IMG/VR virus record: IMGVR_UViG_3300037419_000074
Span: 1 to 34,965 of that record
Strand: one strand, 5' to 3'
Length of the DNA stretch: 34,965 bases
Origin: a virus
Taxonomy: Duplodnaviria; Caudoviricetes
Shown: one piece after another, positions 357 through 18,793 of the stretch
Numbering within the stretch: the first letter of the stretch is position 1
Layout: each line of letters opens with the position of its first letter
Made by a program: the position numbers and the translations under genes
Notes under the pieces: model-generated
Told to the model about the DNA's origin: nothing
Database searches by the model: none
Seen by the model: the letters and a program-made list of their open reading frames with translations, nothing else

Positions 357-1625
357 GTGTGTGGAATTATCGGCATGGCGGGAGACACAAACTACCGCGA
401 TGAGAATACAGTCAAACGACTCCTCGTCCTAGATACGATGCGGGGACAAGATTCGACAGGGCTTGCTGCCGTCAGGAAGTCCGGTAAAGAAGTAACTGTC
501 GCTAAGATGTCATCGCATCCGTTCATTTTATTCGAAATGAAGCGGTTCACCGACGCCCTTAGCTACGGTCAGTGTAAGGCATTCATCGGCCACAACCGAT
601 CAGCGACATCGGGTGATGCCAGAAAGGAAACTAACGCCCATCCATTCCAGTACGGCCATATCACTGGTGTCCATAACGGAACACTAGCGGATGGTGACAA
701 GGAGATTTTAGAAAGGAAGCTTGGTGAGAAGTTTGACGTAGACTCCCAGGCTCTCTTCGCAGCATTCGCTAAGTTCGGAGCCAAGGAAGTAATTCCGTTG
801 TTGACTAGAGGCAAGGATTACGTCCGAGGGGCTTGGAGTCTTGTGTGGTGGGACACGGAGGCGAATACTCTAAACTTCCTCCGAAATGAACATCGTCCGA
901 TGTGGTACTGTTACACCGAAGACTGTAAGCAACTTTGGTGGGCTAGTGAATTCTGGATGCTCGATGCCGCTCTAAATCATACCCAAATCGGGAGTTATAA
1001 GTTCTTCCTTCATCCAAGTAAGGACAATCCGGAGAAGAAGTTCAAGTTCCGACAGACACCTACTGATATGTGGTTGTCTATTGACGTCGACAAACTGGCA
1101 AAGGGCGGAAAAGAGCCTCCAAAATTCACTGCGATTCCGTTGGCGGGAAAGGAGCCTAAGGCGAAGGAGCCGTATGACCCTTTTCCCCATTCACATCAGC
1201 ATGGGAGCTCATGTGGTCAGAGTTCCGGGGGAAACGTCATGAGGGAGAGATTGGAAGCCCTGAGAGCTGCAGCGAAGACGAAGTCTGGACAGACGACGAA
1301 ATCAACGACCTCTTCGACCAAGGACCGGCGTTCTGTTGAGCCCGGCGTAGTTCATCTAATCGGCGACACCGAAAGCCCTTACGCCAACTACATAAGTGAC
1401 TTCGAGTTCGCTCGTGTCGGTCACGATCACAGAAACGGCGAGCCGGTATGCAACTGGTGTCGTCGGACGGTTCCATACGGAATGGCAGGAATTACGGTAT
1501 TCTTTCGTGATAACGTCTTGTTATGTACTCGTTGTTCAGGACACGATGAAGTCTCTATTCTTTCAGATATTGCACCACCATCGAGATTTCTTATCACCAA
1601 AGCAATGATGACGGAGATTAGATAG
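357..1625 (+). CDS. Class II (Ntn) glutamine amidotransferase with C-terminal Cys-rich extension
   Basis: N-terminal MCGIIG nucleophile Cys, RGQDSTG, GHNRSAT, NAHPF, HNGTL and DS motifs; GGAGG RBS before GTG; C-terminal CNWC...CTRC. Confidence 0.9.
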   Translation: MCGIIGMAGDTNYRDENTVKRLLVLDTMRGQDSTGLAAVRKSGKEVTVAKMSSHPFILFEMKRFTDALSYGQCKAFIGHNRSATSGDARKETNAHPFQYGHITGVHNGTLADGDKEILERKLGEKFDVDSQALFAAFAKFGAKEVIPLLTRGKDYVRGAWSLVWWDTEANTLNFLRNEHRPMWYCYTEDCKQLWWASEFWMLDAALNHTQIGSYKFFLHPSKDNPEKKFKFRQTPTDMWLSIDVDKLAKGGKEPPKFTAIPLAGKEPKAKEPYDPFPHSHQHGSSCGQSSGGNVMRERLEALRAAAKTKSGQTTKSTTSSTKDRRSVEPGVVHLIGDTESPYANYISDFEFARVGHDHRNGEPVCNWCRRTVPYGMAGITVFFRDNVLLCTRCSGHDEVSILSDIAPPSRFLITKAMMTEIR

Positions 1626-2590
1626 TGCCTACTTTTGATGATTTTCCCCTCCCGCCGGGAGCATTTGCAGTCAACACTCCCCACGGAGTTAAGATTGCGA
1701 AGAAGTTCGGTAAAAGAATCCAAATACCAGAGGATGGAGAAATGCCAGCTATTCAAGCCCGGAACGGATTTACGTTCGGTGCCGATCCGGAATGTTTCGT
1801 GTTCGACGGAAACGGTAAGCCAGTGGCTCCGACTATGATTCCGGGTTCAAAGCAAGAACCTCATAGGGTTCCCGGCGGGGCAGTTCAGCGTGACGGCATG
1901 GCTGCGGAGTTTAACGTCGACAAAGCCCATGACTTCGCTACTTGGAATCGGAATTTCGAGCTAGTTATCACGGCTCTGAAGGGATTCTTGCCGAAAGACT
2001 ACGAACTTCGCTTCATTCCTTCTGTCGAATTCGATGAAGAGACGTTCTCAGATGCACCGGATGAGTATAAAATTCTAGGTTGCGATCCAGATTGGAATGC
2101 TTGGGACGGAGATTTAAATCCTCCTCCTAACTGCGCAGATCGCCCATTCCTGCGGACTGCATCGGGACACATCCACATCGGATGGGGTAACGACTACTCT
2201 ATGGATGATATGTTCCATCAACAGAACTGCTTCGACCTAGTTAAGCAGCTCGATTGGTGGTTGGCGGGATGGAGTCTTAAGCTCGATCCAGATACAACCA
2301 GACGGTTGCTGTACGGACAAGCTGGCGCCTGTCGCATTAAGCCCTATGGCGTCGAATACCGGACGCTCAGCAACTTCTGGGTCACGAGCAGAGAACGGCG
2401 ACTGACTGTATGGAACAGGATGCAACGGGCAATTATAGGGATGTCGGAAGGAGGCTTGTTCGAGAAAGCCCCGGCGGGGTATAACGACAAACTTCGTGAG
2501 GCCATTAATACCGGGAAGATGGACGAGGCGTTCAGAAAAGCCTGTCGATATCCACTTCAGGTAGAACAATCAGCTTACGCTAGCTTCTAA
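1625..2590 (+). CDS. phiEco32-like COOH-NH2 ligase (type 2)
   Basis: FGADPE, DGMAAEFN, GCDPD, GHIHIG, KPYGVEYRTLSNFW motifs typical of this phage ligase family. Confidence 0.88.
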   Translation: MPTFDDFPLPPGAFAVNTPHGVKIAKKFGKRIQIPEDGEMPAIQARNGFTFGADPECFVFDGNGKPVAPTMIPGSKQEPHRVPGGAVQRDGMAAEFNVDKAHDFATWNRNFELVITALKGFLPKDYELRFIPSVEFDEETFSDAPDEYKILGCDPDWNAWDGDLNPPPNCADRPFLRTASGHIHIGWGNDYSMDDMFHQQNCFDLVKQLDWWLAGWSLKLDPDTTRRLLYGQAGACRIKPYGVEYRTLSNFWVTSRERRLTVWNRMQRAIIGMSEGGLFEKAPAGYNDKLREAINTGKMDEAFRKACRYPLQVEQSAYASF

Positions 2591-2607
2591 GGCCAGAGGA
2601 GGAGAAA

Positions 2608-3414
2608 GTGAAGCATCCTAATTTCTTTGAGACACCGGCTGAGGCTCAGATGCGGCTGGTTAACACCGTCATTTACTACCACGGACCCGGAGAAGAAGGC
2701 CCTTACTTCGTCTTTGCCGCCACGGATCATAAAGACGGTAAGTTCAGAATCTATATGAAGCGGTTGGGGCAGAAATACCTTATCGAGGGGCTTCATAGCT
2801 CCCACATCCCTAGCAACCACATAGGCCGTAGTGACCCGTCATTAGCCGGGGCTATGGACAAGTTCATGACGCAGTATCCATCGATGAATATCGTCAGGAA
2901 GCAGATGGACTCTCCTCACTTCAACAACTTCCGTCCATTTCCGTTAGGGATGATGAACCAAGTCAGTCGAGACAAAGACGGAAGGGGTGTGGACTGTCGT
3001 TGCCTGTATCTAGAGCGGCAACCTAACAGGAAGACAGAGCAGGGACTGATTACCTCGATGGTATATGTCTCGCCTGTCACTGCAGCTATGAAGCGTAGTC
3101 CATCTCAAGCAGGCTATGCCTTCGATATGTGGGCTCCTGAGTTTCTAGATTGTGTCGAAGGGAATTATCCGAATCCTGACGTCTGTCTATCGAAGCTCCG
3201 TGATCCTAAGATCGACAACGAAGCCGTGGCGTTTTCGAGATACTTCGCCTTCGTAAGAGGGCCAATCGACATGATCTTCCTTAGTTATAAGGGCGAGATT
3301 GTCGGAATGCTTGATAACAATAACCTGTCACAAGTCACAATCGGACGAGAACATAGGTATACAAGAGAAGCCGTAAGTGATTTGCGTATCTTTGAAGCCG
3401 TGAAAGGAAGATAA
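2608..3414 (+). CDS. Hypothetical protein within the amidoligase cluster
   Basis: 268-aa ORF, strong GAGGAG RBS before GTG, abuts the next gene; no motif recognised. Confidence 0.75.
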   Translation: MKHPNFFETPAEAQMRLVNTVIYYHGPGEEGPYFVFAATDHKDGKFRIYMKRLGQKYLIEGLHSSHIPSNHIGRSDPSLAGAMDKFMTQYPSMNIVRKQMDSPHFNNFRPFPLGMMNQVSRDKDGRGVDCRCLYLERQPNRKTEQGLITSMVYVSPVTAAMKRSPSQAGYAFDMWAPEFLDCVEGNYPNPDVCLSKLRDPKIDNEAVAFSRYFAFVRGPIDMIFLSYKGEIVGMLDNNNLSQVTIGREHRYTREAVSDLRIFEAVKGR

Positions 3415-4575
3415 GTGCTCAAATCCAATAAGAATACGAATAAGAAGGAGCCGGACGTATTCATCAAGCGTCCAGAGGTTACGCCCGGATTAACTCTCGC
3501 TATGGCGATAGGGCTGGATAAGAAGAAGCTCAGGGAGGGTGAAGTCGGTATTGAAATCGAGGTAGAAGGCAAGCGACTGCCGGGGCTGAATGGCGGGCTT
3601 GTGCCTCCTCCGTGGAAGTATCACGCAGATCACAGTCTCCGTGGCGACGAGACAGGGGAGTATGTCCTAGACGCGCCTGTCATGTTCTCTGAGGTACCGC
3701 AGGCTCTTGAGACTCTGTGGAATGCATTCGAAACGTCTAAAACCGTATTCAATGACAGCAATAGGACTTCAGTGCACATCCACCTAAACTGCCAGAGGTT
3801 TCATATCAACAGGCTGGCTGGCTTTGCGGCTCTGCATTTCGCGTTAGAAGAAGTTCTGACGGAGTTCTGCGGGGAGCATCGTGTAGGTAATCTCTTCTGT
3901 CTCCGAGGCAAGGATGCCGAAGCTATTGTGACTTGGCTTAAGAAGTTTATCCAGTATGACGGTGAATACGAGCTACCGGATGGGCTTCACTACGCGGGAT
4001 TTAATGCCTCGGCTCTTCAGAAGTTCGGTAGCATCGAAATCAGGACACTGAGGGGGGTGTCGAATCCTAACATCATCCAAGACTGGGTGGCTATCTACGA
4101 GCGTCTGTATAAGTTCTCAGGAGATTTTAAGGACCCATCAGAGCTAGTGGGATTGTTCTCAATGGACGGGCCTACTGCCTTCTTTAATACCGTACTAGGA
4201 GACAAGGCAGACATCCTCCGTAACGGTTGTGGGATGACCGGAGAGCAGATTGCTGACAGTCTCTACGCCGGTATACGCAGGGCTCAGGATATCGCTTATT
4301 GTCGAGACTGGTCTGAGTTCAGGGCAATCGACGTCTCTGATAACCCGTTCGGGATGCCTAAGAATAGGTTGATTAAGAAGGTGATGCAGGCGGCGGGTAT
4401 TTCTGAAGTATATGCAGAACCTGTAGTAGCATTGCAACCCGAATATGATGAAGAGGAGATGCCTCCATATAATGATTCAGTTCACTTACAGCAAATGTGG
4501 CAACAGGTGAGTCAAATGTACTCTGGTACAAGCGTAAACCCGGCACCAACTCCGGATAACGGTTGGGATCTGTAG
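3415..4575 (+). CDS. Putative amidoligase enzyme (Amidoligase_2-like COOH-NH2 ligase)
   Basis: VGIEIEVE, DHSLRG..GEYV, RTSVHIH, KFGSIEIR motifs; acidic low-complexity C-terminus. Confidence 0.82.
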   Translation: MLKSNKNTNKKEPDVFIKRPEVTPGLTLAMAIGLDKKKLREGEVGIEIEVEGKRLPGLNGGLVPPPWKYHADHSLRGDETGEYVLDAPVMFSEVPQALETLWNAFETSKTVFNDSNRTSVHIHLNCQRFHINRLAGFAALHFALEEVLTEFCGEHRVGNLFCLRGKDAEAIVTWLKKFIQYDGEYELPDGLHYAGFNASALQKFGSIEIRTLRGVSNPNIIQDWVAIYERLYKFSGDFKDPSELVGLFSMDGPTAFFNTVLGDKADILRNGCGMTGEQIADSLYAGIRRAQDIAYCRDWSEFRAIDVSDNPFGMPKNRLIKKVMQAAGISEVYAEPVVALQPEYDEEEMPPYNDSVHLQQMWQQVSQMYSGTSVNPAPTPDNGWDL

Positions 4576-4585
4576 AAAGGAAAGA

Positions 4586-5521
4586 GTGATGAAGAAGTTC
4601 TATATCTATGCATATTCGATGGGGTCTAAGGGAGCCAATCTCCTGAAGGAAGAACTCAGCTGTCAGCTGATTAAGCGAGAAGGCAGTCAATTTTCTCCAT
4701 CACCAGACAAGATTGTCATCAACTGGGGAGCTTCAGATTGTCCCGCGAGCTATAACGCGATTAATAAAAACGTAAAGGGGGCTTTGAATAAGGGAACTTT
4801 CTTCGACCGGTTGAAAGGAACCGGCTGCGTTCCTAAGTTCGCTACGAGTAAGCTCGAAGCAGCGGCGACCCTTAAGTTTCCGATATTCTGTCGCACTAAG
4901 CTGGAAGGCAAGGACGGAGAAGGCATCAAGATCGCCGAGACGTGGAATGATTTAGTCGAGGCTAAGCTTTATACCCAGTTTGTTGACAAAACAAGTGAGT
5001 ATCGCATTCACGTAGGTCGAGGAGCCACTGGCTATGAAGTCATCGGCGCCCAGAAGAAGATCAAGAAGTCTGTTCCTGACGGGGAGAATATTCCTGCAGA
5101 CGCCCGTATCTGGGGCGGTGACGTCTATGGCCTCGTCTGGACGGCGAATGGACAGCCGGTTCTGATTCCTGATCCAGTTAAGGCAGTAGTCAAGAAGGCG
5201 TTCGAAAAGTTCCCTGAGCTAACCTTCGCTGCCTTCGATTGCATCTTCAACAACTCCACCGGCGAGGCTTATGTCCTCGAAGCCAATACGGCACCGATGG
5301 GAACTCCGGAGACAATGAAGCGTTATGCCAAGTTCTTCAAGTCCCTCCACCCAGATGTCGGAGTCGAAACTCCTGCTGCAACGCCTGCAAGCCCGGCGCC
5401 AGCAGCGGCTAGCCCGGTTACAAACACAATTAGTCCAACACCTTCTCTCCCAGTAATCACTGTTGAGCAGGTGAAGGCGGCGCAGGTGGTTATTAATGCA
5501 TATATTGCCCAACACAGCTAG
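4586..5521 (+). CDS. ATP-grasp ligase (phiEco32-like)
   Basis: INWG, EYRIHV, AFDCIF and VLEANTAP ATP-grasp motifs; Pro/Ala-rich C-terminal linker. Confidence 0.85.
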   Translation: MMKKFYIYAYSMGSKGANLLKEELSCQLIKREGSQFSPSPDKIVINWGASDCPASYNAINKNVKGALNKGTFFDRLKGTGCVPKFATSKLEAAATLKFPIFCRTKLEGKDGEGIKIAETWNDLVEAKLYTQFVDKTSEYRIHVGRGATGYEVIGAQKKIKKSVPDGENIPADARIWGGDVYGLVWTANGQPVLIPDPVKAVVKKAFEKFPELTFAAFDCIFNNSTGEAYVLEANTAPMGTPETMKRYAKFFKSLHPDVGVETPAATPASPAPAAASPVTNTISPTPSLPVITVEQVKAAQVVINAYIAQHS

Positions 5522-16754: not shown

Positions 16755-17037
16755 CGACCGACTAGAAGCGGCTGTAGGAGAACTGACTGAGGCGGCAGTT
16801 AACTTCATCGGGTCAGTTGGTGAATACGATCAAGAAACTAAAACACCGGTCGATGACACAAGTGCTACTAGGATGCGAGCGGCTCGGCAGAAAGTAGTCG
16901 AGACCTATGCCACCCTACAGGTAGCTCTTAATCGAATCGGATACGTCTTCAGGATTGATGGCGATGAAGCCTTTAGTAAGATGGTTGATTTCATCTCAGG
17001 TCCAGAAGATGCAACTCTAGTCTTATCCGGCCTATAG
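16678..17037 (+). CDS. MazG/NTP-pyrophosphohydrolase-like protein, apparently degenerate
   Basis: Helical pattern LEAAVGELTEAA...VVETYATLQVAL...FRIDGDEAF resembles phage MazG-like proteins; TTG 16678 has GAGG RBS (track start 16663). Confidence 0.55.
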   Translation: MSESRETVVGKITGDQNRLQYDDKDSDRLEAAVGELTEAAVNFIGSVGEYDQETKTPVDDTSATRMRAARQKVVETYATLQVALNRIGYVFRIDGDEAFSKMVDFISGPEDATLVLSGL

Positions 17038-17057: not shown

Positions 17058-17096
17058 AGGGCTCGCCAGCTTAATTGCCAGCGAGCCCTCGTTTTT
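17058..17096. terminator. Probable bidirectional intrinsic terminator at the arm junction
   Basis: AGGGCTCGC (17058-17066) / GCGAGCCCT (17081-17089) inverted repeat; TTTTT follows on +; stem extends to 13 bp by G-U pairs on the - strand RNA. Confidence 0.8.
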
Positions 17097-17112
17097 GCCT
17101 AAGGTAGGCTAG

Positions 17113-17430
17113 TTAATTACTGTGGTCGTTGTTCCATCCGTTGACGTGTCCGAATTCATGGCACATGAGATGGGCATAGGAGTTTTTGTCGTTAGCCTCA
17201 GGGAATGAACAAGGATTGGGGGCGAGAATTGTAGGAACTCCATTCTTTTCATACTCACAGGCTAAGATAATCCAGCCCTTTTGAGCAACACCGCAAGCCT
17301 GCTTTGAATTAGGATTCGTCACTGTCACTACTATTGTAGGAACGGCGTTACCTTGATACTTAGGAGGAGGTAAGTCGTTATTATAGGGTGCGGCGCTAAG
17401 TATTGCAAAAAGACCTAGGAGAATTTTCAT
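17113..17430 (-). CDS. Small exported protein with HExxH motif (minimal zincin-like)
   Basis: Signal-like MKILLGLFAILSA, four Cys, AHLMCHEFGH near C-terminus; weak RBS. Confidence 0.6.
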   Translation of the reverse strand: MKILLGLFAILSAAPYNNDLPPPKYQGNAVPTIVVTVTNPNSKQACGVAQKGWIILACEYEKNGVPTILAPNPCSFPEANDKNSYAHLMCHEFGHVNGWNNDHSN

Positions 17431-17758
17431 GATAGGGTTACCAAATCCTTACGTACTCGTTGCAGGAGGGGCTGGTGTACTCGCCATTGCTGCAACTATT
17501 TTTATCCAGAGTTCACAAATCCACAGTTGGCATCAAGCCTACCTGAAGGACGAGAATACAATCGCGGTGCAACATCAACAGATTATAGACATGACTAAGG
17601 CTCAGAACGATCAACAGTTGAAGTCTGAAGACAATGTCACTCGCGTAGTCCAGCTTCCGTCGCAGTCAGCCCCGATCATTAAGATCATCAACAACACTCC
17701 CGATGGGGACGGCTGTGTCGCTCCTAATGATCCCGAGGAGGTTAAGAATGCGTTCTAG
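17429..17758 (+). CDS. Putative inner-membrane spanin (Rz-like)
   Basis: AGGAG RBS; single N-terminal TM segment, Gln-rich coiled coil, C-terminal Cys; overlaps a lipoprotein gene. Confidence 0.72.
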   Translation: MIGLPNPYVLVAGGAGVLAIAATIFIQSSQIHSWHQAYLKDENTIAVQHQQIIDMTKAQNDQQLKSEDNVTRVVQLPSQSAPIIKIINNTPDGDGCVAPNDPEEVKNAF

Positions 17759-18020
17759 TCTCAGTATATTCCTTATCCCGCTGGCTTTAGGAGCTTGCGG
17801 AATGATGCCGAGAGTCGAGACAAGAATCCAGCAGGTGCATTGCCTGACGCCGGAGCAGTACCTGAAGCTGGTGCAGGCAGCGCCGGAGAAGATTGGACAG
17901 CACCTTGATCCTGATCTGAGGAAGCAGAATAAGGAGCTGAAGGTTCAGAACGTCCTTGTTCGTCAGTATGCGGATGGTCTTCTTCAAGTCCTTGGCGGCT
18001 GTACAGGTCGCGCTCCTTAG
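17748..18020 (+). CDS. Putative outer-membrane spanin lipoprotein (Rz1-like)
   Basis: GAGGAGG RBS before ATG 17748; MRSSLSIFLIPLALGAC lipobox; two further Cys; 11-nt overlap with i-spanin. Confidence 0.75.
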   Translation: MRSSLSIFLIPLALGACGMMPRVETRIQQVHCLTPEQYLKLVQAAPEKIGQHLDPDLRKQNKELKVQNVLVRQYADGLLQVLGGCTGRAP

Positions 18021-18414
18021 CCCTACGGGTCACTAATCCCGGCACGATCTTGCCGTTGTCGTACTTCCACTTAGGAAACTCGGCAGCGGCTTTTTCGTAT
18101 TCACGAGCTTTGTGATATCTTAGTAGCGAGGAATGCAAGAATTGAGTAGGTCCGATGTTAAATACAAAGTCAACCAGCGCGTCAAATTGCCCTTGGGTGC
18201 AGGGAAGGGCGTAACTATTCACGATCCCTGCGGCGTAATCCATGTCGTGTTTAAGGAGAGCTTCGGCAGTCTCACGACTTATGACTTGGTTTTCCACCAC
18301 CCCGCCAGTGTGTCCGTAACCTATAGTGAGAACACCACCCGTATCTCGGTATGCCCTAAGTCGAAGTCCTTCTGAATCCTCAGTTAGCTTAAGACCCTCG
18401 TCACTAATGTTCAT
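17773..18414 (-). CDS. Endolysin, GH24 lysozyme with ~75-aa C-terminal extension
   Basis: EGLRLRAYRDTGGVLTIGYGHT (E-x8-D-x5-T triad), FDALVDFVFNIG, GLVTRRAKE. Confidence 0.93.
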   Translation of the reverse strand: MNISDEGLKLTEDSEGLRLRAYRDTGGVLTIGYGHTGGVVENQVISRETAEALLKHDMDYAAGIVNSYALPCTQGQFDALVDFVFNIGPTQFLHSSLLRYHKAREYEKAAAEFPKWKYDNGKIVPGLVTRRAKERDLYSRQGLEEDHPHTDEQGRSEPSAPYSASSDQDQGAVQSSPALPAPASGTAPASGNAPAGFLSRLSASFRKLLKPAG

Positions 18415-18572
18415 TACTTCTTAGGCGTATAGTCGGGGGTCAGGATGGCGATGGCGCCACAGATAAACGAACCTATGATTAGCTTAGGATAATAGGCAGC
18501 AGCTGCTACGAATACTCCCGCCAGACCAGCCCAGGTGCTAGCTTCTTTGGCTCTACCGATTAGATAATTCAT
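18414..18572 (-). CDS. Putative holin (52 aa, not in ORF track)
   Basis: MNYLIGRAKEASTWAGLAGVFVAAAAYYPKLIIGSFICGAIAILTPDYTPKK: two hydrophobic segments, basic C-terminus, TAATG-coupled to endolysin. Confidence 0.72.
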   Translation of the reverse strand: MNYLIGRAKEASTWAGLAGVFVAAAAYYPKLIIGSFICGAIAILTPDYTPKK

Positions 18573-18793
18573 TTCACTATTCCTAAGTAATGAAACAATT
18601 GAGCGACTGCTCCTATGATCCCTGTCCCGACTAAAGCTGCAGCAAGCCAGAAAGCCCCTGCTCCTTTGTAACGAAGGGCTAGTAGTTCATCTAGCTTCCG
18701 CTCCATGCTATCGACTTTATCACGGAGTTCGTTTACTTGCTCTTCCACGCGAGCTAACCTTTCCCCCTGAAGGGCGCTATAATGCATACTCAT
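18569..18793 (-). CDS. Coiled-coil plus C-terminal TM protein (lysis-associated, XhlA-like architecture)
   Basis: RLARVEEQVNELRDKV coiled coil then FWLAAALVGTGIIGAVAQLF TM; ATGA overlaps on both sides. Confidence 0.65.
   Translation of the reverse strand: MSMHYSALQGERLARVEEQVNELRDKVDSMERKLDELLALRYKGAGAFWLAAALVGTGIIGAVAQLFHYLGIVK

Follow-up and report, generated by a model that had tools for sequence, protein, structure and literature searches.

Introduction

Spanin gene pairs have been sorted into embedded, overlapped and separated classes, and their products are described as accumulating harmlessly until the peptidoglycan is gone (Kongari 2018, PMC6139136). In the overlapped architectures described in the main text of that survey, the overlap is only that of the i-spanin gene with the o-spanin gene, on one strand. 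Some spanins are not co-transcribed with the holin and endolysin, as with T4 pseT.3/pseT.2, phiEa104 and rv5; the spanins of the latter two phages are listed in the supplement of the survey as lying far from the lysis cassette and on the other strand than the holin and endolysin genes. Here we analyse a lysis locus in the phage record IMGVR_UViG_3300037419_000074 (34,965 bases, 73% complete; hereafter the window, meaning the whole of this DNA), in which a candidate spanin pair is likewise encoded on the opposite strand from a candidate holin and an endolysin. Unlike the remote spanin genes of T4, phiEa104 and rv5, those of the window are adjacent to the endolysin gene, convergent with it, and have 248 nt of coding DNA in common with it.

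The window is that of a podophage with two converging genome arms. Up to ~17 kb the plus strand carries genes of replication and nucleotide metabolism (the left arm), while beyond ~17 kb the minus strand carries virion genes (P22-like portal, capsid, head closure and a lytic internal protein). The lysis locus is where the arms meet. DNA of the window is present in 11 sequencing runs labelled soil or rhizosphere metagenome, five of which are possible sources of the record, and no RNA run with this stretch was listed. The best explanation of its layout, which we consider probable, is that an ancestral spanin pair became inverted at this junction, that the endolysin gene was then extended at its 3′ end by read-through over the antisense strand of the o-spanin gene, and that the resulting tail was kept by selection.

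Opposite-strand spanins as such are already known, and the original prediction, which had taken the known embedded or overlapped architectures to be same-strand, has to be qualified by the phiEa104 and rv5 entries. A coding overlap between an o-spanin and an endolysin is a different matter: no report of one was found at the level of titles and the openings of abstracts, most subscription papers being outside our reach. The words ‘strand’, ‘opposite’ and ‘orientation’ occur nowhere in the main text of PMC6139136, and ‘antisense’ nowhere in its supplement.

The o-spanin gene lies antisense to the endolysin gene

Re-reading of the DNA upheld the coordinates and strands predicted for all four lysis open reading frames (ORFs). 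On the minus strand lie a holin candidate (18414–18572, 52 amino acids (aa)), whose stop codon shares one base with the endolysin start, the endolysin (17773–18414, 213 aa) and, downstream of it, a small secreted-type protein with an HExxH motif (17113–17430, 105 aa). On the plus strand lie the i-spanin candidate (17429–17758, 109 aa) and the o-spanin candidate, a 90-aa lipoprotein (17748–18020). Recounting gave the same overlap as before, with 248 of the 273 o-spanin bases (91%) antisense to the endolysin gene, and the o-spanin stop codon (TAG, 18018–18020) does fall in the RRAKE codons, on endolysin codons 132–133 (A and K). The i-spanin gene stops 14 nt short of the endolysin gene. The earlier description of a spanin pair encoded inside the endolysin gene thus holds for the o-spanin and not for the i-spanin.

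The GH24 assignment of the endolysin was confirmed by a PF00959 match over residues 13–134 (E = 2.3e-39). Glu15, Asp24 and Thr30, which we take to be the GH24 Glu-Asp-Thr triad from its motif spacing, are invariant in 8/8 endolysins. Eighty-two endolysin codons are overlapped; given the extent of the PF00959 match, ~8 of these (132–139) belong to the lysozyme domain (codons 1–139, 17998–18414) and ~74 to a tail past the domain.

Searches for the o-spanin locus returned 9 loci with a single query and 11 with an alignment, and an endolysin search returned 17, of which 11 were examined, the remaining 6 being repeats of known contigs. In all 11 loci found with the o-spanin alignment, the i- and o-spanin genes are on one strand and the antisense layout is kept. 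Ten have a full 212–217-aa endolysin on the opposite strand, its phase unchanged and its tail open; in the eleventh the open tail is still visible although the endolysin is cut by the contig end. For the counts by lineage we dropped the near-identical loci L018, L021 and L026, the truncated L024, and L042, which is the same as L041. Across the 7 retained lineages the endolysins are 57–63% identical to that of the window. The neighbouring genes vary among loci (for example, a ribonucleotide reductase upstream, or different holins), which together with the 11-locus conservation shows that the layout is neither an assembly error nor that of a single clonal genome. Many of the relative contigs may derive from few datasets.

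An assembly inversion, raised by the original prediction as what could overturn it, or frames open by chance, would have as its main argument that no single contig bridges the whole spanin–endolysin junction: contigs from 4 DNA runs cover the region piecewise, and none spans 17430–18064. However, no strand-changing joint was listed among these contigs, both frames are unbroken across the junction, and the same layout recurs in the 11 other contigs, so that the relatives in effect rule this explanation out. No convincing inverted repeats surround the spanin pair, which leaves an invertible switch of the recombinase type unsupported. The conserved, doubly coding antisense overlap of two lysis genes is real. 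It adds an architecture, antisense overlap with the endolysin, to the catalogue of spanins, one in which cassette-based annotation would miss the o-spanin or delete it as a shadow ORF.

Two sets of matches were not used. Six viral-contig loci recovered with the i-spanin query (L010–L015) match at the N-terminus only (28%) and carry a different, embedded spanin pair; they were set aside. The single short matches from a metagenome scan (L027) and a genome scan (L073) were treated as spurious.

The plus-strand pair resembles overlapped two-component spanins

The N-terminal TM (transmembrane) segment, the lipobox and the ribosome-binding sites predicted for the two plus-strand ORFs survived inspection. 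The i-spanin ATG is preceded by AGGAG and the o-spanin ATG by GAGGAGG, in keeping with the strong ribosome-binding sites (RBSs) claimed for both. A hydropathy scan of the i-spanin candidate gives a single hydrophobic segment, at the N-terminus (Kyte–Doolittle 19-mer peak of 2.23 at residue 8), consistent with one N-terminal transmembrane (TM) segment followed by a periplasmic part with an invariant Cys96. In 8 aligned sequences, 45–55% identical to the window protein, the frame is intact and the N-terminal TM segment is kept. The o-spanin gene starts within the i-spanin gene, with an 11-nt overlap in the +1 frame, and extends past it, as it does in the relatives. Its product has a lipobox, LALGA-C17, read directly from the sequence, and a profile search places it in a family of 49 representatives (E ≤ 0.001). 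The lipobox Cys17, Cys32 and Cys85 are invariant in 30/30 aligned members, and the structure model (mean pLDDT 84) has a long C-terminal helix at residues 57–86.

In the genomes of more distant relatives, the family occurs in conventional lysis cassettes. Of the 13 distant o-spanin homologs fetched, 8 come after an N-terminal-TM gene that itself lies downstream of an endolysin on the same strand, another 2 have cassette neighbours on their own strand, 3 are without context, and none (0/13) has an antisense endolysin. L034 and L035 were called same-strand from their holin, HExxH and i-spanin neighbours, there being no endolysin match in their fetched DNA. L049 and L054 likewise place o-spanin-family members in lysis cassettes with a same-strand endolysin upstream, and the i-spanin candidate is weakly similar to the i-spanins of same-strand cassettes (L049: 32%, E = 1e-11).

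These contexts also bear on the idea that the pair is an envelope module of a different kind, for example a lipoprotein of the moron type, or one for superinfection exclusion, that works with a partner in the membrane. Lambda bor is an example of a lipoprotein moron encoded antisense next to lysis genes, and 7/30 family members weakly match the Cor lipoprotein PHROG (best E = 0.0045), while no spanin-family match is significant. The cassette position of the distant homologs, the +1 overlap, the periplasmic cysteines in both proteins and the lack of a second lipoprotein copy in the record (itself 73% complete) speak against this possibility, which we regard as very unlikely.

Against the spanin assignment itself stand the results of similarity searches: nothing significant was found for either protein in Pfam or PHROG, the Rz-like PHROG matches are weak (14/30 o-spanin family members, best E = 0.0034), and while the top Foldseek match of the o-spanin model is an annotated o-spanin, its E value is 0.45. 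Similarity to described spanin families is at most suggestive. A predicted complex of i-spanin residues 26–109 with o-spanin residues 17–90 scored 0.02, which is no answer, and was used neither for nor against the pairing. The anatomy fits, with a predicted TM anchor, a lipobox, a +1 overlap, periplasmic cysteines, a helical o-spanin and, in relatives, a place in the lysis cassette; at least one periplasmic cysteine is found in 507 of the 528 known spanin pairs tallied in PMC6139136. Taken together, these features make it very likely that the two ORFs are an overlapped, two-component i-/o-spanin pair, as originally proposed.

In the parts of the literature available to us, the closest match is the P2 LysB/LysC class of overlapped spanins (PMC6139136; phiCbK, PMC3556154), which has the same N-terminal-TM gene, a +1-frame lipoprotein gene extending beyond it, periplasmic cysteines and a helical o-spanin. 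Unlike that class, the window pair faces the holin and endolysin, its o-spanin gene is 91% covered by the endolysin gene on the opposite strand, and neither its sequences nor its fold significantly match a described family. In three relatives, ORFs that we label HNH-like endonucleases from their motifs accompany these genes: between i- and o-spanin in L030 (3424–4035) and L033 (3424–4050), and adjoining the o-spanin in L036 (1216–1680).

The o-spanin frame is likely the older of the two

To compare the two frames we used an ungapped core of 61 codons, in which pairs of sequences differ on average by 0.17 at the first, 0.13 at the second and 0.38 at the third o-spanin position. This third position is the second one of the endolysin, and over the same DNA the o-spanin is 81% identical compared to 54% for the endolysin tail. 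This is the codon-level comparison of both strands that had been proposed as a check, and substitutions here are dominated by the o-spanin. Furthermore, with the tail as query, only the window's own protein was recovered among 707 candidates, versus the 49 representatives of the o-spanin family. These three observations indicate that the o-spanin is likely the older, dominant frame and that the endolysin likely gained its ~74-residue tail by read-through over the o-spanin antisense strand. The original prediction, in which a spanin had been placed inside an endolysin gene, is thereby probably reversed: it is the endolysin that appears to have been extended over an older o-spanin.

Relatives display what look like the preceding states. 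In L049 a tailless endolysin (about 140 aa; 67%), an i-spanin (32%), an o-spanin (49%) and an HExxH gene are all on one strand, in the gene order of the window except that the spanin pair is flipped. In L041/L042 the pair is inverted, with a 27-nt tail-to-tail overlap and an endolysin that runs only a few residues past its domain. The window and L016–L026 represent the long-tail state. In the o-spanin tree antisense and same-strand loci are split (95/97), the long-tail loci lie on one side of a branch (88/93), L041 falls just outside the long-tail group and L049 outside both. This succession in the o-spanin tree, from same-strand L049 through L041/L042 to the long tail, suggests that inversion followed by read-through is the likely order of events.

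The phylogenetic support has weaknesses that weigh against this order. The o-spanin tree is built on 69 columns, its bootstrap values are unsettled and it is midpoint-rooted. The endolysin tree does not reproduce the ladder: the window pairs with L041 (92/93), L049 falls among the long-tail rows, and a one-clade test is merely not rejected (p-AU 0.197). Given this conflict, L041 or L049 may have reverted or recombined. In L051 (2895–3443, minus strand) the inverted slot holds an unrelated embedded pair of lambda-like layout, with a 32-nt overlap with the endolysin 3′ end.

As in overprinted genes such as lambda Rz/Rz1, phiX174 D/E and the antisense ORFs of Pseudomonas, two proteins are encoded by one stretch of DNA and the newer frame is rich in residues that promote disorder. 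In the window, unlike these, the new frame lengthens an existing enzyme and runs antisense through a second gene of the pathway, and relatives still show intermediates. The locus is a compact, testable example of an antisense strand giving rise to new protein sequence, in which the states before, during and after can be compared and the same-strand homologs serve as natural controls.

The endolysin tail appears to be kept by selection

We counted stop codons in the endolysin-phase antisense frame of the o-spanin gene, from the lipobox Cys to the last Cys; besides the loci dropped above, this count excludes L037, L038 and L040, and L036, which lacks context, was counted separately. No stops occur in the 553 codons of the 8 long-tail lineages, compared to 4/67 in L041 and 30/709 in 11 same-strand homologs, none of which (0/11) has the frame open. 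Elsewhere in the same phase there are 11 stops in 109 codons under the i-spanin gene and, under 16 further genes of the window, 0.073 per codon. When the o-spanin was recoded synonymously, the tail stayed open with a probability (P) of 0.003–0.084 per lineage. In the reverse test the o-spanin frame stayed open in 1–9% of endolysin recodings, with ~38% identity. By both tests, neither frame is a shadow of the other. At dipeptides that risk a stop on the opposite strand (for example Val-Lys, Val-Met and Ile-Thr), a G- or A-ending codon is used in every listed case.

The tail has two parts. The linker (residues 140–196, 17827–17997), antisense to the o-spanin periplasmic domain and predicted to be disordered, has a net charge of −6, consists to 67% of P/A/S/G/Q and is open in 8/8 lineages. 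The C-terminal segment (residues 197–213 plus stop, 17773–17826), opposite the o-spanin signal peptide, lipobox and first mature residues, has a net charge of +4. Its hydrophobic moment in the window is 0.67 versus 0.25 for the recoding null (p 0.0002), and it exceeds the null at p < 0.05 in 5/8 lineages, with the 7 relatives ranging over p 0.02–0.39. Despite indels in the signal peptide, the tail ends converge on a cationic amphipathic segment. Thus, the tail appears to be kept by selection.

Several observations temper this conclusion. For the window taken alone the P of an open tail under recoding is 0.084. The lineages share ancestry and per-lineage P values cannot simply be multiplied; because neither sites nor lineages are independent, a joint stop-avoidance probability of 2e-7 was set aside and is not relied on. 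The terminal segment of L019 is not above its null (p 0.39), and AlphaFold gives residues 142–213 a pLDDT below 50, with the terminal helix not modelled.

The same data allow the tail to be weighed as a tolerated by-product: the endolysin stop codon would have been lost in one ancestor, and the extension would have persisted without a function of its own. Conservation of the linker is poor (54%, much of it forced by the o-spanin), the linker is predicted to be disordered, and L041 and L051 manage without a tail, all of which a by-product would explain. It would not explain the stop-free frame compared to homologs lacking an antisense gene, the stop-avoiding codons at each listed risk dipeptide, or the convergence of the ends on a cationic amphipathic segment, and we consider it improbable.

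If selection does keep the tail, read-through would have given the lysozyme an acidic flexible linker, or leash, and a cationic, amphipathic, membrane-seeking end. Our leading, tentative suggestion for its job is that it tethers the lysozyme to a membrane through the terminal helix on its long leash; help in breaching the outer membrane ranks second and is less probable. Cationic amphipathic C-terminal helices have been described in membrane-active endolysins (PMC6139136; PMC11929351). The window enzyme resembles LysTS3 and LysTS6 (PMC11929351) and the phiKMV-like enzymes cited in PMC6139136, as far as these accounts go, in having, after the lysozyme, a positively charged and putatively amphipathic stretch at the C-terminus. 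It differs from these in that the segment sits on a 57-residue acidic linker, lies antisense to a lipoprotein signal and lipobox, has an apparent read-through origin and is of putative activity. Were the helix membrane-active, the locus would illustrate one route by which such endolysin helices originate.

Candidate terminators suggest convergent transcripts with overlapping ends

A plus-strand hairpin followed by a T5 tract (18052–18095; arms 18052–18061 and 18081–18090) lies 31 nt past the o-spanin stop, within endolysin codons 106–122. At these codons the synonymous diversity of the endolysin is 0.17 versus 0.57–0.65 upstream, and the plus strand folds at about −25 kcal/mol versus about −9 for the recoding null, more strongly than the minus strand; this is the only such low-diversity, folding window along the lysozyme domain. 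The hairpin has z scores of −4.0 to −5.7 in 10/10 endolysins with antisense spanins, L051 included. Among 22 endolysins it is present in these 10 and in L050, and absent from L049 (z +1.6) and 10 more distant ones. A consensus terminator scan missed the hairpin, which has a long interrupted stem. We consider it a likely candidate for the intrinsic terminator of the spanin/left-arm transcript. Arguing the other way are its presence in L050 despite same-strand spanins, the lack of any compensatory change in a stem that is 97% paired in 9 distinct sequences, and a U-tract that in most relatives is only UUUGUCG.

A mirror hairpin on the minus strand, in the i-spanin 3′ region, is found in 5/6 lineages that lack the HExxH gene (p ≤ 0.022), the exception being L022. 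Two of its pairs have changed on both sides, and in a control that takes no account of relatedness its covariation score is reached by 3/500 shuffles. Only weak folds occur at this site in the window and in L023 (p 0.03 and 0.05), both of which have the HExxH gene downstream. The window has another hairpin at 17058–17097, between the last left-arm gene (which ends at 17037) and the HExxH gene, that is a candidate bidirectional terminator (z −4.4 on the minus strand and −2.6 on the plus strand) and may stop left-arm transcription before the spanins. In L016, L017, L019 and L025 the left-arm gene just upstream has a stop that is overlapped by the start of the i-spanin gene. A scan for sigma-70 sites returned 5 versus 3.6 expected, none of them on the plus strand upstream of the i-spanin inside the HExxH gene. 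One sigma-70-like site (10/12) at 17380–17409 lies within the HExxH gene and faces left, away from the start of the i-spanin; the count of such sites is within chance.

The strand-specific hairpins imply two convergent transcripts with overlapping 3′ ends, as had been predicted, and these indirect signs make it likely that both strands are transcribed, each transcript ending inside or past the genes of the other. Under the inversion and read-through explanation, lysis itself would follow the ordinary three steps, with the holin opening the inner membrane, the lysozyme removing peptidoglycan and the i-/o-spanin complex fusing the membranes. Since spanins are harmless until peptidoglycan is removed, co-transcription with the holin and endolysin is not forced and the left arm can serve the pair. 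The left-arm transcript would supply the spanins from its end and would halt at the 18052–18095 hairpin; in the window this transcript would have to pass the 17058 hairpin by read-through, or start inside the HExxH antisense. The holin–endolysin transcript would continue through the spanin antisense and end in the i-spanin gene in relatives without an HExxH gene, and after the HExxH gene in the window.

A less probable alternative, which develops the original prediction, is that the overlap sets the timing of lysis. In this model spanin synthesis begins earlier, from the left arm, whose transcript pairs or collides with the holin–endolysin transcript and so restrains the lysozyme until late transcription wins. 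The 3′-end overlap bounded by the hairpins would be ~390 nt in L016-type phages (i-spanin +262 to +652) and up to ~1 kb in the window. The overlap of the i-spanin start with an upstream left-arm stop in L016, L017, L019 and L025 and the occupation of the same inverted slot by an unrelated embedded pair in L051 would fit such a role. Middle transcripts of LUZ7/LIT1 that are antisense to late cassettes have been suggested to silence them (bioRxiv 10.1101/2022.03.18.484859). However, a plus-strand transcript halted at the plus-strand hairpin would reach neither the start sites of the holin and endolysin nor the greater part of the lysozyme domain, an arrangement that looks more protective than silencing. 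Moreover, L049 and L050 within the same group have same-strand spanins, and the hairpin upstream of the window spanins may cut them off from the left arm.

The published description of LUZ7/LIT1 that we could draw on resembles the inferred situation in the window in that early/middle and late transcription converge, the RNAs overlap and there are bidirectional terminators. In the window, unlike LUZ7/LIT1, the overlapping RNAs would each be an mRNA for lysis proteins, and the candidate terminators are inside coding sequence. A still broader proposal would have a lysis switch arise from the overlap as a whole: the spanin pair flips onto the replication arm, two convergent mRNAs each end at a terminator in the codons of the other, the endolysin acquires a new functional membrane-binding module from the antisense of a signal peptide belonging to a lipoprotein, lysis is timed by the overlap, and each step is still recorded in the relatives. 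In this full form we think it unlikely. If the embedded hairpins do terminate transcription, regulatory signals are written into the synonymous sites of an essential enzyme, and direct testing of convergent overlap as a phage lysis timer becomes possible.

Neighbouring genes and genome setting

The holin label is that of a candidate, given for size, position and weak hydrophobicity. It is a small ORF next to the endolysin with two weakly hydrophobic segments (hydropathy of both ~1.6); in Pfam and PHROG it matched no holin family, the sole match being a PHROG of unknown function (E = 0.0027). In some relatives the holin slot is occupied by other small membrane proteins, and L051 and L055 have a homolog of the holin candidate beside the endolysin. 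A 74-aa ORF (18569–18793, minus strand) immediately upstream of the holin candidate has a coiled-coil-like N-terminal part, a C-terminal TM segment and a weak XhlA-like Pfam match (E = 0.006); it may be a second holin-type or lysis-control gene.

Homologs of the HExxH protein stand beside spanins in the lysis cassettes of L023, L028, L031, L034, L035, L041, L049, L050 and L053. They share an invariant Cys-Gly, a Cys and HExxH..GW. An alignment of these proteins had no PDB match and only single weak zincin-like matches in Pfam; the protein may be an unrecognised lysis-associated metalloprotein. The HExxH and i-spanin genes overlap head to head at their start codons in the window (17428–17431), L023 (3670) and L041 (3487–3542), by 2 shared bases in the window and L023, so that each RBS sits in the antisense coding strand of the other gene. 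Mostly where the HExxH gene is absent, a ~200-aa signal-bearing protein occurs at a similar place in or beside the cassette (L029, L030, L032, L038, L051, L052, L054 and L055); from its motifs, it looks like a trypsin-type protease. L052 (2498–4136) carries a close relative of the endolysin, and no spanin pair was detected in the 2.5 kb downstream of it.

Protein searches against annotated phages gave no match for the window o-spanin or for P0014. The closest matches were 47% for the endolysin and 36% or lower for the portal, and on this ground no cultured relative or host was found for the window. At its left end, on the plus strand at 357–5521, is a cluster of glutamine amidotransferase, COOH-NH2 ligase, amidoligase and ATP-grasp genes, which we take to be like that of phiEco32/LUZ24-like podophages.

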